A stretch of DNA of 64,000 bases, taken from NCBI GenBank assembly GCA_963707655.1, contig OY970172.1, positions 480,001-544,000 on the forward strand, written 5' to 3'. This DNA is from an uncultured bacterium (GTDB lineage Bacteria > Babelota > Babeliae > Babelales > Vermiphilaceae). The notes beneath the pieces were generated by a model. It ran no database searches, was not told the DNA's origin, and saw only the letters and a program-made list of their open reading frames with translations. Of the stretch, positions 5,999 through 9,914 are shown in pieces. A program made the position numbers and the translations under genes. Every line of letters begins with the position of its first letter. The stretch's first letter is position 1.

Positions 5999-6003
5999 AA
6001 CTA

Positions 6004-6032
6004 TTGATCTTCCTTTTGACTGCTATTATACT
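6004..6032 (+). promoter_or_regulatory. Sigma70-type promoter for small peptide gene A
   Basis: TTGATC (6004-6009), 17 nt spacer, TATACT (6027-6032); same hexamers and spacing as 8963-8991. Confidence 0.75.
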
Positions 6033-6093
6033 ACTACTCCATAATACTAAAGCCACAAATAATTTCTAACAACTTTATGTTTAAGGATTGCTA

Positions 6094-6174
6094 ATGATCA
6101 GTTTGTTTTTCATGAAACTTCTCACTCTTGCTTTTTTTGTTGTTATGCTGCTCCGCTACCCGCCTAATGCGTAA
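6094..6174 (+). CDS. Small hydrophobic peptide A (26 aa, MISLFFMKLLTLAFFVVMLLRYPPNA); putative ligand or partner of regulator A
   Basis: Below the ORF-track cutoff. AAGGA RBS before the ATG, conserved promoter, C-terminal YPPNA matching FPPNR of the 9034 peptide. Alternative start at 6112. Confidence 0.65.
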   Translation: MISLFFMKLLTLAFFVVMLLRYPPNA

Positions 6175-6263
6175 TAGCTTAGCTTCTCGCACCGAACAGA
6201 AGAAGTAAAGACACACTTGTGATATTATTGCAGAAAAATAGTCTTTTTACTAAAGCCTATTTT

Positions 6264-8957
6264 TTACTCTAAATTAAACTCTTTGCATCGTCTATTGACT
6301 GATGAGCGGTTGACGCCTAAAAATGACGCGATTTTATTCTGATTCTTAAATTTATCCCACAACATTACCATGATCCGCTGATCGCGCAGGGCATGTTTGC
6401 CCAGACGCGCGGCTTGAATAAGTTCAGGAGACGTTGTCTCATACGCAGCATGAAACTGCGGCTCATGTTCTATCTCGTTTTTCTTTGATTTTGCTATTAA
6501 TAATTGCTGAATCTTTGTTTTAAGCTCTTGCAGACTTATTGGTCGGACAAGAGCTATTTTTGTTTTCTCTTTATCGGTAAGCTCAAACAAATTCCCCAGG
6601 GGCTGTTCTTGGAGCGCAATAGCGCTAAAACCATCAGCCAATGTATCAAGTTCATTTTGAGGCAAAGTGAGCAATGATGGCATGCTTAAACTTGTTTTTT
6701 TCAGCTCATTAAACAACGCCGCAGAAAAAGTGCCCTCATGCACGCGTGCGGATAAATTCTGGTTACTTGAACAGATAATGCGCACCGAGCTGCTTATTTT
6801 CTGGTCGCTTTTAAAGACACGGAATATGCCATATTTTAAATATTCAGCTAAATATTCCTGCGCTTCCATCTCTAAAAAGTGAATGTTTTCTATAAAAAGA
6901 GTTGCCGTGTTATCAAGCTTTTCAAGCAACGATTTGTTTGGCGATGTGCTAAAAATAGGATTAATGCCAAACAGTTTGATTGCATTTTCAAAATTGCGTG
7001 CCGGTGATTGCAGAGTGAGAATATGCAGCGTATCACGCAGGCTGATATGGTGTATGATTTCAACGGTGGGCATAAGATCTTCAGTAGACATTTCAAGCAA
7101 AAGCGCTTTTTTGGTGAGCGCCATTTTGAGAAACTCAATTTTAAAATTGAGCAACGTTTCACCCGATCCGGGAATAAGTTGGTTAATTAACTGGCCCGAC
7201 TTGGTCGTCTCCAGATAGAGAAGATAATCCCATTTGGTTGGATCTTTGAGCAAATCAATTTGACGTTTTACAATATCGGAAATATCAGGATGATAGAGGG
7301 TAATGATAACATTGTTTTTTTCAAGATTTGGCACGCCGGCAATAACTATTTTGTTGCCATCATTATCAAGAGCAATCATTGATTGCGGCGATTTATATTC
7401 TTCTACCTGAGTGGCAACCTGCTTTATTGCTTTGGTCAGAGGATGTCCCTCGTGCGTATTAAGGTTGATTTTAACCAATTCTTGTGCTGTTTGATTGCCA
7501 AAAGTAAAGCGGCGACTTTTGTAGAATAAGATGCCGATTTCTTTTTGTTTATTGGAGCGCAAAAATGAGCGAATGCTTTCTTTATACTGGTTTATCTCTT
7601 GATGCTTGCCATAAAGCTCCTCTTTGAGCTCTTTTTCATGAGCAAGCAGTGCTTCCAATTTTCGATTCTGTAATAAATAAATAATATTACCTACATAGTT
7701 GGCAAAGACCAACATCTCATCCTGCTCAACCTTGCTATAAAAATTATTGTTGCGCGCATAGCGGTCAATAATAATATAAGCGATGAGAATATTGTTTTTA
7801 TAAAGAGGAATAAAAACATCTGCATTAAGCGCTTCTAATAGATTGAGCAATGTTTTTTGCGTCTCTTCCTCATCATAAAAATTAGTAAAATCAAGTTCGT
7901 CGGTGATGAGTATTTCTTTGTTTTTTAATACTTCCACTGCTGCCGATTGCGTTGCAAGGAAAGTTTCAATAACCATTTCAACCCTGTTGTTTTCTCCATT
8001 ACTTTCTCCGTTAACAGCCTGCTTGGCGCGGGTATAAAGCAGTGTGCGATTTACCGGAGTATTAAAATTCTCTTTAAAAAACGTCTGGGTAATATGGCTT
8101 AATTCTTTAGGATTGGTAACCATACTCAGCTGTTCAAGAACATCTTTAAAATTGTTTACAAAGTTGAATCGTGCTGCCGCTTGCACATGATCATTCAGAT
8201 TAAGAAAACGCAAACCGGTCACACGGCGCGAGCAATAATAAATCGCGTAGGCAAGCAAGAGGTTTGAAAGCCCAACCGCTGCATAGCTACTGGTAATATA
8301 TGAGGGAATAACAAAATTGAAAGGATATACTTGGATAAAATCAAAGAAAAGGTGGGGGATAATGAATGCTCTGATAATAATAGAAAGCTGTTTTTTAAGT
8401 AAGCGGGGAAGTTGCTTGTTGCGCAATTGCCAATACACATAAAAGAGACTGGGCATGATGAGCGGGAAAAGGCAATACAAAGAACAGATTCTTTGTAGAT
8501 TATAGAGTATGATGCTTTTCACGCCGGTATGCCAACTGACAAAGGCTTCAGATAAGAACGCAACAACAAAGAATGCACTGAGCAAAAGAAAGATGGCTCG
8601 GCGCAGAGTGATTTTATACTGTGGCTCTACAAAGCTTTCTATAAACAGGGCCAATGATTGATATTGTATTACCGGAAATGCCCATGCGATGCGCACCCAA
8701 AGGGTGGAATCCATGTTAGGAAGAAAAAGCCGTGAAATAAGTTCAACGATCCAGGCTGAGTCAACAACTGATGCGCCAATCAATACACCGCACAAAAGCC
8801 AGATAGATCGGTGAGAGTTTTTAGAGGCAGAAAGACTGCGCGTTAAAAGATAAATCAGTAAAAATATTTTAAAACTGAAAGTACACGCAAGAATGGTTAA
8901 CAAATAGTACTGATTACCCAGTATTGTTTCTAGAGAATGTAGAAAAGTTGTTATCAT
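6264..8957 (-). CDS. Membrane one-component regulator B, paralog of 3269-5998
   Basis: Same architecture; near-identical LKDPTKWDYLLYLETTKSGQLINQLIPGSGE block and HTH; diverged TM region. Confidence 0.85.
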   Translation of the reverse strand: MITTFLHSLETILGNQYYLLTILACTFSFKIFLLIYLLTRSLSASKNSHRSIWLLCGVLIGASVVDSAWIVELISRLFLPNMDSTLWVRIAWAFPVIQYQSLALFIESFVEPQYKITLRRAIFLLLSAFFVVAFLSEAFVSWHTGVKSIILYNLQRICSLYCLFPLIMPSLFYVYWQLRNKQLPRLLKKQLSIIIRAFIIPHLFFDFIQVYPFNFVIPSYITSSYAAVGLSNLLLAYAIYYCSRRVTGLRFLNLNDHVQAAARFNFVNNFKDVLEQLSMVTNPKELSHITQTFFKENFNTPVNRTLLYTRAKQAVNGESNGENNRVEMVIETFLATQSAAVEVLKNKEILITDELDFTNFYDEEETQKTLLNLLEALNADVFIPLYKNNILIAYIIIDRYARNNNFYSKVEQDEMLVFANYVGNIIYLLQNRKLEALLAHEKELKEELYGKHQEINQYKESIRSFLRSNKQKEIGILFYKSRRFTFGNQTAQELVKINLNTHEGHPLTKAIKQVATQVEEYKSPQSMIALDNDGNKIVIAGVPNLEKNNVIITLYHPDISDIVKRQIDLLKDPTKWDYLLYLETTKSGQLINQLIPGSGETLLNFKIEFLKMALTKKALLLEMSTEDLMPTVEIIHHISLRDTLHILTLQSPARNFENAIKLFGINPIFSTSPNKSLLEKLDNTATLFIENIHFLEMEAQEYLAEYLKYGIFRVFKSDQKISSSVRIICSSNQNLSARVHEGTFSAALFNELKKTSLSMPSLLTLPQNELDTLADGFSAIALQEQPLGNLFELTDKEKTKIALVRPISLQELKTKIQQLLIAKSKKNEIEHEPQFHAAYETTSPELIQAARLGKHALRDQRIMVMLWDKFKNQNKIASFLGVNRSSVNRRCKEFNLE

Positions 8958-8962
8958 AACTA

Positions 8963-8991
8963 TTGATCTTCAATATTCAAAAAGCTATACT
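8963..8991 (+). promoter_or_regulatory. Sigma70-type promoter for small peptide gene B
   Basis: TTGATC (8963-8968), 17 nt spacer, TATACT (8986-8991). Confidence 0.75.
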
Positions 8992-9033
8992 TGTCTTCAA
9001 ATTTCACCGAGCTATTTCCTTAGGAGGATTTCT

Positions 9034-9141
9034 ATGAACAAACTGAAAAATGTTATCAATTTCCTGTGTTCTCCCTACTTTCAAGTAGCAGTTGCGCTGG
9101 TTATGGTATTTGCATTTGATGAATTTCCACCAAACAGATAA
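9034..9141 (+). CDS. Small hydrophobic peptide B (35 aa, MNKLKNVINFLCSPYFQVAVALVMVFAFDEFPPNR); putative ligand or partner of regulator B
   Basis: Perfect AGGAGG RBS at 9022-9027, conserved promoter, basic N-terminus, hydrophobic core and FPPNR tail. Confidence 0.75.
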   Translation: MNKLKNVINFLCSPYFQVAVALVMVFAFDEFPPNR

Positions 9142-9242
9142 ATCATCTTGTTTCTTGATTCTACCATAAATGGTAAACATGAACAAATTGGGTTTTAATG
9201 CGCCTGGAAATTCAATAATGGCAATTAAAATTTTTATTAGAG

Positions 9243-9914
9243 GTGCATGACATGACTGAGCGTGAACGGGTGGAAAAAATTATCCATCTCTTGCGCAAAA
9301 ATACCGTTGGTATGGTCGATCCTGCATCTCTTTCTCTTATTAAAAAATTCGGTCACAATCCGTTTATTGTCCTGGTAGGCTGCATGCTCAGCCTCCGCAC
9401 TCAAGATAAAGTCTCTCTCCCTGCATCGCTCAGGCTCTTTGAGCACGCAAAAACTCCTCAAGAAATACTGTCACTCCCGCTCCATTCGCTAGAAAAACTG
9501 ATTTATCCGGTTGGTTTTTATCGTAATAAAGCAAAATATATTCATTTGACCTGCAAAAAGCTAATTCAAGATTTTAATGGCACAGTGCCACAAACACGAG
9601 ACGAGCTTCTTACATTGCCCGGCGTCGGACGCAAAACTGCCAATCTCGTTTTGGGAGAGGCATTTGGCATTCCGGCTATTTGTGTTGATACCCATGTGCA
9701 TAAAGTTTCTAATCGTTTGGGCATTGTAGCCACAACAACAGTTGAAGAAACAGAAGAAGCACTCATGAAAGTGCTTCCTGAAAAATATTGGATCGAATAC
9801 AATCGGCTTTTGGTTATGTGGGGGCAAAATGTTTGTTTGCCCATCTCGCCACTCTGTTCACAATGCGTTCTTTTGCCGCTCTGCCCGCAAAAAGGTGTTA
9901 TCCGCCACCGTTAA
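9243..9914 (+). CDS. nth: Endonuclease III
   Basis: HhH motif LPGVGRKTANLVL, VDTHV, and 4Fe-4S motif C-x6-C-x2-C-x5-C. Start may be the ATG at 9252. Confidence 0.95.
   Translation: MHDMTERERVEKIIHLLRKNTVGMVDPASLSLIKKFGHNPFIVLVGCMLSLRTQDKVSLPASLRLFEHAKTPQEILSLPLHSLEKLIYPVGFYRNKAKYIHLTCKKLIQDFNGTVPQTRDELLTLPGVGRKTANLVLGEAFGIPAICVDTHVHKVSNRLGIVATTTVEETEEALMKVLPEKYWIEYNRLLVMWGQNVCLPISPLCSQCVLLPLCPQKGVIRHR

Follow-up and report, generated by a model that had tools for sequence, protein, structure and literature searches.

Introduction

What is the role of a promoter that lies almost on the start codon of a regulatory gene and points away from it, towards a short open reading frame (ORF)? The question is raised twice by a 64,000-nucleotide (nt) stretch of DNA, referred to below as the window, from the 1.09-Mb genome of an uncultured bacterium of the phylum Babelota (family Vermiphilaceae; assembly GCA_963707655.1, contig OY970172.1, positions 480,001 to 544,000). 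The window carries two paralogous regulator genes in tandem, each with a small peptide ORF divergent from its start codon (regulator 1 and peptide 1 form locus 1, regulator 2 and peptide 2 form locus 2), and the same 14-mer abuts both regulator start codons. The original prediction took this 14-mer for part of a sigma-70 promoter of the peptide, lying on the start region of the regulator and possibly harboring an operator, and expected the two transcription units of each locus to overlap face to face.

Here we report that a sigma-70-type promoter aimed at the peptide ORF is conserved at this position across the phylum, and that at locus 2 it is probably opposed by a second promoter just past the peptide gene. 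All promoters, transcription starts, leaders and overlaps given below are sequence-level predictions. The Babelota live solely inside protists, where they are widespread obligate parasites, and to our knowledge almost none of their gene regulation has been described.

Results

A conserved promoter on the regulator start region faces the peptide gene

The 14-mer, AACTATTGATCTTC, occupies positions 5999-6012 and 8958-8971 of the forward strand, immediately past the CAT of the regulator ATGs (5998 and 8957); counting this CAT, 17 bases are identical between the two loci amid flanking DNA that has diverged. It contains TTGATC (at 6004 and 8963), with TATACT following exactly 17 nt later at both loci. 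These elements are as originally described, and the genome-wide scan proposed as a check returned only these 2 copies at up to one mismatch.

A match to 9 of the 12 consensus bases does not by itself exceed chance, since 7 kb held 17 where 18.9 were expected, and the promoter test therefore had to be comparative. From 206 homologous loci we obtained 279 regulator N-termini, 211 of them unique and with at least 330 nt upstream; an 85% identity filter left 205 regions, and a peptide was called in 182 of these, the other 23 being omitted from the promoter counts. By the neighbor of the peptide, the 182 loci divide into 116 that adjoin nth, a glycosylase-type gene, 52 tandem loci in which the peptide faces the end of an upstream paralog gene, and 14 others. 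Scores were taken with a fixed generic matrix against a null of dinucleotide shuffles. Peptide calling relied on a proline motif, which is thus partly selected; the promoter tests are free of that selection.

Over the 182 non-redundant Babelota loci, the 80 nt at the regulator ATG scored 9.25 in the direction of the peptide, against 4.69 (sd 0.12) in shuffles, and 4.57 against 4.19 in the direction of the regulator, with the forward score above the 95th percentile of the null in 90% of loci. The -10 element is TATACT in 117/182 and TATAAT in 31/182, the spacer is 17 nt in 159/182, and the consensus reads TTG-17-TATA(C/A)T with spacer columns of near-zero information. As had been proposed for the window, the promoter lies on the regulator start region; in 129 of 164 loci, 3-8 nt separate the ATG from the beginning of the -35. 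The forward sequence is, by its conservation, a credible sigma-70-type promoter aimed at the peptide ORF, and we have very little doubt that it functions.

The identity of the two copies carries less meaning than it was first given. All 14 bases agree in 1 of 37 same-locus tandem pairs (the present one), an exact copy of the 14-mer was present in 3 of the 205 regions, and within-genome pairs are no closer than permuted pairs (8.35 versus 8.51 of 14). A special role of the full identity, or concerted evolution of the paralogs, is accordingly rejected, and the 14-base agreement is coincidental on this comparison.

Promoters of tandem copies (window positions 6027-6040) retain bases beyond the -10, namely TATACT-AC-T, a C-rich run and then G, and in several tandem-class loci the predicted start is flanked by a short inverted repeat. 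Ranked third among the genome matches to the extended promoter is TATTGCACTT, with an 18-nt spacer and TATACT; it lies on the minus strand at about 478948 of contig G000:C1, some 1 kb before the window and 4 kb from the cassette, 38 nt ahead of a 151-aa ORF.

A second promoter opposes it past the peptide stop

In nth-adjacent loci, the 80 nt past the peptide stop scored 6.80 on the other strand against 4.67 in shuffles. A TG extension, which the matrix does not score, accompanies the signal in 72% of these loci versus 6%, and the strict pattern TTG-N17-19-TGnTAnnnT is present in 77/116, where shuffles give 0.92 and the forward strand 2. Apart from this, the nth-adjacent loci showed no promoter signal directed at the regulator. 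The reverse promoter of locus 2 (Table 1) is predicted to drive regulator 2 and, by read-through, probably regulator 1.

Since the reverse promoter lies past the peptide stop, the regulator mRNA is predicted to be antisense to the whole peptide gene. Between the two starts the predicted overlap is 152 nt at the median (102 loci), and the predicted regulator leader 195 nt; terminators between the reverse promoter and the regulator ATG numbered 0 in 85 leaders, a weak test given that shuffles also yielded 0. On these grounds a head-on overlap at locus 2 is highly probable.

Downstream of the peptide, no forward promoter signal was detected between its stop and nth, leaving nth without a promoter signal of its own, and a terminator intervenes in only 2/116 loci, so that peptide 2 and nth probably form one unit.

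The conserved unit is a 10-base box around the -35 element

Across loci, what is conserved of the 14-mer is a 10-base box, TATTG(A/C)T(C/A)TT, most often in the form TATTGATCTT (34 counts), and the outer positions of the 14-mer carry little information. Flanks that the matrix does not score are conserved, with T-2 in 135, A-1 in 129, T+6 in 140 and T+7 in 118 of 163 loci; in 174 other strong promoters of this genome, the corresponding counts are 61, 68, 48 and 55. Among orthologous control promoters (strong promoters only, drawn from 29-30 regions per gene), T-2 occurs in 2/16 for rplM, 1/7 for rpsB, 3/8 for rplU and 7/21 for groES, and in 137/164 for the cassette; other control-gene sets were too small (thrS 6/47 usable, two further genes 0). 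In 27 loci the distance between the -35 and the ATG is 11-40 nt, and the flanks persist there too (T-2 in 22, T+6 in 25, T+7 in 20). Because the position of the box is tied to the -35, and not to the ATG, it is not the ribosome-binding site of the regulator; as the regulator's Shine-Dalgarno (SD) sequence it was rejected on this ground and because an SD core precedes only 27/182 regulators, against 178/182 peptides. In this genome about 55% of called genes have an SD core.

The helix-turn-helix (HTH) recognition helix of the regulator is nearly invariant (V882, R884, S885, R889 and R890 in all of 92 sequences), which fits one conserved site, and we regard the box as a candidate operator of this regulator, with the balance falling slightly short of even.

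Other roles for the sequence were tried and set aside. A palindromic operator found no half-site at a fixed position, and palindromic expectation-maximization motifs were diffuse (mononucleotide null only). A Dam site does not fit the TTGCTA variant, which lacks GATC, and the observed/expected ratio of GATC is 0.99. Pairing of the box with the antisense of the peptide SD, both on the regulator mRNA, gave no signal in nth-adjacent loci (p 0.47) and a weak, kin-driven p 0.018 in tandem ones.

The regulator joins a seven-helix domain to a degenerate AAA core

Regulators 1 and 2 are 51% identical. An AlphaFold model of regulator 2 (92 sequences, pLDDT 83.6) has seven N-terminal helices followed by GAF-like, coiled-coil, PAS-like, AAA and HTH parts, the PAS label being an interpretation of modeled secondary structure; a single-sequence model of the seven-transmembrane (7TM) domain reached pLDDT 48 and was not used. 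The 7TM domain aligns with solved G-protein-coupled receptor (GPCR) structures at Z 14-16.8 (best Z 16.8, root-mean-square deviation 4.0, 227 residues), and as helical bundles can reach Z 13-14 by chance, the match is a statement of fold only. Look-alikes in the Atlas, searched with the homologue P0001, are HisKA_7TM clusters at a TM score of about 0.67. The corresponding PF16927 was matched by 1 of 60 members (E 0.035), and the sequence family of the domain is compact, at 399 clusters.

The only Pfam matches of the regulator are to bacterial enhancer-binding proteins (bEBPs). Foldseek placed the AAA part closest to NtrX (5m7o), and NCBIfam matches to DhaR, NtrX and TyrR were below cut-off. 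GAFTGA occurs in 0/92 sequences and GxxGxGK anywhere in 1/92, and the Walker B DE appears as KN, QN or EN; RpoN (PF04552) was found in none of 41 genomes searched, with the positive control detected in 4/14. With Walker A, GAFTGA and Walker B lost and no RpoN in 41/41 genomes, the regulator is, by its sequence, not a sigma-54-dependent bEBP. RRNPP receptors have an N-terminal HTH and a helical-repeat peptide pocket, and Rgg proteins are soluble; with an N-terminal 7TM domain and C-terminal HTH in the model and only bEBP matches in Pfam, the present protein is not an RRNPP regulator. The near-consensus promoter would lean toward repression or modulation as its mode of action.

A profile of the regulator matches 200 of 239 phylum genomes, 172 strongly and 28 weakly (E ~1e-13 or higher), and relatives occur in Ca. 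Dependentiae / Babeliales records. A plasmid search gave no match. Among short pieces from 4 of 11 DNA runs, two match parts of 8970-9132 with zero differences.

The divergent ORFs encode short hydrophobic peptides ending near a proline pair

An SD-led ORF of 15-70 aa containing PP and divergent from the regulator is present in 160/205 regions, against 0-1 in each of ten shuffles. The peptides mostly start basic, continue with a hydrophobic run and carry PP near the stop, all four proline codons being used; (D/E)-x-PP is mostly of the nth-adjacent type and (R/K)-x-PP mostly of the tandem type. The hydrophobic stretch is about 12 residues long (9-residue Kyte-Doolittle median 3.0), and 139 of 163 peptides have 1-3 residues beyond PP. 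Residues around PP differ strongly from locus to locus, and 6 of 182 precursors repeat the motif.

These six (L005, L017, L024, L029, L082 and L085) hold two or three PP units, such as SVFPPI twice, much like repeated pheromone precursors. In one clade, nth-adjacent peptides (L049, L053, L054, L062, L128, L136, L140, L150, L155 and others) end in x-PG or x-PT in place of PP, which makes the first proline less than absolute.

Similarity of the peptide core is tied more closely to the 7TM domain than to the cytoplasmic part of the regulator (partial r 0.161 versus 0.059; permutation sd 0.037, kin not independent). Predicted as a complex, peptide 2 and the 7TM domain scored 0.29, the mark being 0.32. 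The genome encodes a protease of the M50 (RseP/Eep) family. Indirectly, the similarity pattern, the repeated PP units and the protease gene speak for the peptide as the ligand of the regulator, which we hold somewhat more likely than not.

Of the 52 tandem loci, 15 have a terminator-like hairpin past the peptide stop, compared with 0-2 in shuffles. Elsewhere in the genome, a repeated unit with 1287-nt spacing forms two clusters on opposite strands (G000:C1 ~449102-450389 and 559254-563115), possibly a repeat protein gene.

Table 1. Positions of the cassette elements within the window
Feature	Coordinates	Strand	Description
Regulator 1, 909 aa	3269..5998	-	7TM-GAF-coiled coil-PAS-degenerate bEBP AAA-HTH; tandem copy; layout modeled on regulator 2
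Peptide-1 promoter box TATTGATCTT	6002..6011	+	Holds -35 TTGATC 6004-6009; 5 nt from regulator 1 ATG; candidate operator
Peptide-1 promoter -10 TATACT	6027..6032	+	17-nt spacer; predicted start ~6039-6040
Peptide 1 ORF	6094..6174	+	26 aa, MISLFFMKLLTLAFFVVMLLRYPPNA; SD-like AAGGA 6083-6087; R-x-PP type
Hairpin, candidate terminator	6233..6265	.	Between peptide 1 stop and regulator 2 stop; weak, -8.5 kcal/mol
Regulator 2, 897 aa	6264..8957	-	GPCR-fold 7TM (~16-250), GAF, PAS, bEBP-like AAA, C-terminal HTH
Peptide-2 promoter box TATTGATCTT	8961..8970	+	Holds -35 TTGATC 8963-8968; 5 nt from regulator 2 ATG; candidate operator
Peptide-2 promoter -10 TATACT	8986..8991	+	Predicted start ~8998-8999
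Peptide 2 ORF	9034..9141	+	35 aa, MNKLKNVINFLCSPYFQVAVALVMVFAFDEFPPNR; SD AGGAGGA 9022-9028; (D/E)-x-PP type
Reverse promoter	9158..9186	-	-35 TTGTTC 9186-9181, 17 nt, TG extension, -10 TAGAAT 9163-9158; predicted start ~9151
nth-type HhH-GPD glycosylase gene	9243..9914	+	First ATG 9252; probably co-transcribed with peptide 2

Discussion

The reading that we favor, by a cautious preference, is that phylum-conserved head-on promoters serve as the switch of a likely peptide-sensing cassette. The leader of the regulator mRNA (~195 nt), antisense to the peptide gene, would cross the peptide promoter, and the two transcripts would dampen each other, through interference or by pairing as antisense RNAs. 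Once exported or inserted in the membrane, the peptide would bind the GPCR-fold 7TM domain by its C-terminal (D/E or R)-x-PP-x segment, and the HTH would then bind the -35 box and set transcription of the peptide (plus nth), closing a feedback loop.

Several observations weigh against this. The face-to-face overlap expected of both loci stands at locus 2 and in the nth-adjacent class at the frequency given above, and does not extend to the tandem, locus-1 type, where the strict reverse pattern occurs in only 4/52 copies. Locus 1 itself has only a weak reverse candidate near 6176-6204, which makes read-through from 9151 the probable source of regulator 1 transcripts; such read-through would also be antisense to peptide 1. 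In the tandem copies no fixed alternative site for a regulator promoter was found; a bidirectional promoter with a shared -10 was rejected as the regulator promoter (reverse TATAAT in 36/100 and 15/46 loci, no fixed partner -35) and is kept as a candidate for the tandem copies. For the box, no second copy, inverted or direct, was found within ~400 nt (best off-site count 6/169, in a coding region), and Fis-type HTH proteins usually bind dyads. T+6 is frequent in groES promoters too (13/21), T-2 is present in 26/27 strong atpB promoters, and the atpB box is kept in G114, one of two regulator-lacking family-f2 genomes examined, and absent from all four regulator-bearing family-f4 genomes examined. 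To these may be added the failure of within-genome pairs to resemble each other more than permuted ones, and the peptides, in which no clear A-x-A signal peptidase site was found.

The atpB observations bear directly on the operator. About 90 nt ahead of the start, promoters of this gene, which encodes ATP synthase subunit a, show in many families (L267-L296) the box as T(A/G)TTGC..T, together with TATA(C/A)T; in a pattern scan of 68 family genomes the cassette was matched most often and atpB repeatedly (60 distinct matches inspected). In the present genome, the atpB promoter lies outside the window, at G000:C1:613698-613728. The gene may be either a member of the regulon or the mark of a strong-promoter style, and the latter is suggested by G114 and the f4 genomes. 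The best-surviving rival builds on this: the box would be the preferred extended -35 of the single Babelota sigma factor, the regulator would bind elsewhere, and the overlap would reflect compact gene packing. Besides the shared atpB elements, the lack of a dyad and the centering of the box on the -35 itself speak for it. It fits poorly with rplM, rpsB, rplU, groES and other strong promoters, which mostly lack T-2 and the purine at -1, with the reverse promoter of the same loci, which has no conserved flanks, and with atpB regions of families without a full-length regulator, where 0/20 have a strong promoter of this type (atpB being divergent there and start calls crude). We consider this account possible, on balance unlikely.

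An alternative sigma factor was rejected, as one sigma-70 gene (a single PF04542 match) was found in the genome, which is 88.6% complete. This sole gene, at G000:C1:649481-651700, is split upstream of region 2 by several frameshifts, which point to indel errors in this assembly.

A second rival keeps the same promoters and parts from the favored reading over the fate of the peptide, which would remain in its own membrane and, acting in cis, modulate the 7TM domain to provide a feedback brake, as the membrane peptide MgrB does, and would not serve as an intercellular signal. The short hydrophobic stretch, the few residues past PP and the lack of a clear signal peptidase site would suit such a peptide. 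The repeated PP units, which suggest processing, the strong variation around PP between loci and the presence of the M50 protease gene do not, and we rate this possibility a little lower still than the sigma-factor account.

Two further explanations are improbable. The RNA made from the reverse promoter might be an antisense antitoxin, with the ORF encoding a hydrophobic toxin of type I unrelated to the regulator, as in the Ibs/Sib systems; a small hydrophobic ORF with a convergent promoter just beyond its stop looks the part. Yet every paralog of this regulator has one such ORF, always divergent from it, the leaders lack a terminator on the weak test given above, and the regulator has no other promoter candidate. 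Hardly more probable, and marginally less so, is a proline-sensing or ribosome-stalling leader peptide controlling nth. PP near the stop and the 116 of 182 peptides that precede an nth without a separate promoter, with terminators rare, agree with this role, whereas the 52 peptides that face a convergent regulator gene end, often with a hairpin, would have nothing to lead, and the conserved basic-hydrophobic N-terminal part would be superfluous.

That the 14-mer is conserved only as the translation-initiation region of the regulator, an outcome the original prediction had itself raised, or through recent duplication or gene conversion, is scarcely credible: it adjoins the ATG and the regulator leaders are A-rich, with A at -3 in 70%, but the box follows the -35 up to 40 nt from the ATG, the -10 and 17-nt spacing are conserved too, and the paralogs are far apart in sequence, with saturated spacers.

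Parts of the favored arrangement have counterparts elsewhere. In Streptococcus pyogenes, the peptide promoters of Rgg2/SHP2 and Rgg3/SHP3 share a -35 motif (22/23 nt identical) bound by the regulators (PMC3509411). The two loci of the window likewise comprise two pairs of regulator and short hydrophobic peptide with a shared motif at the -35 of the peptide promoter; the shp promoters lack a recognizable -35 (PMC3509411), whereas the Babelota -35 is near consensus. The shared box is shorter here, at 10 nt, and a candidate site only, and in place of a soluble Rgg protein there is a membrane regulator that combines a 7TM domain with a dead bEBP core. In Enterococcus faecalis, prgQ and prgX of pCF10 are transcribed convergently over 223 nt, with control by interference and antisense RNA (PMC3181467). 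As is predicted for the Babelota cassette, with ~150 nt in place of 223 nt, the regulator there is transcribed from a promoter facing the peptide operon, and the two mRNAs are antisense to each other; the plasmid system differs in that it switches conjugation, has two peptides and employs Anti-Q attenuation and RNase III cleavage (PMC3181467). The Babelota cassette is chromosomal, vertically kept and beside nth, and no attenuator was found in it; we do not claim homology to pCF10.

The regulator shares an AAA fold and C-terminal HTH with the sigma-54-independent bEBP homologues NtrX, TyrR, DhaR and VpsR, from which it differs in having lost all three catalytic/sigma-54 motifs and in carrying its 7TM input in the same chain. 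With HisKA_7TM (PF16927) and GPCRs it has the 7TM fold in common, which shows neither ligand nor homology, and in contrast to HisKA_7TM its 7TM domain is fused to a DNA-binding regulator and not to a kinase or cyclase.

In the literature searched, most subscription journals and supplements being outside its coverage, no description of this regulator-peptide cassette was found; for C. destructans, the paper on its genome describes the isolate as having no quorum sensing (PMC6561590). The promoter itself is ordinary. What is unusual, judging from the comparison of loci, is its place in a predicted phylum-wide head-on peptide-regulator switch, whose architecture echoes the logic of streptococcal Rgg/SHP and enterococcal pCF10 using unrelated parts. 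For the cassette there are promoter positions exact to the base, along with candidates for the operator, the ligand and a target (atpB). The strain Noda2021 is in culture (PMC8812299) and carries both paralogs (L048), which makes these predictions directly testable. At the boldest, and more doubtfully, most Babelota might possess an unreported class of quorum sensing in which a GPCR-fold receptor is itself the transcription factor, the xPP ligand is processed and specific to strain and paralog, the switch is head-on, and the -35 box places the ATP synthase operon under control, timing the cycle of the parasite in its protist hosts.

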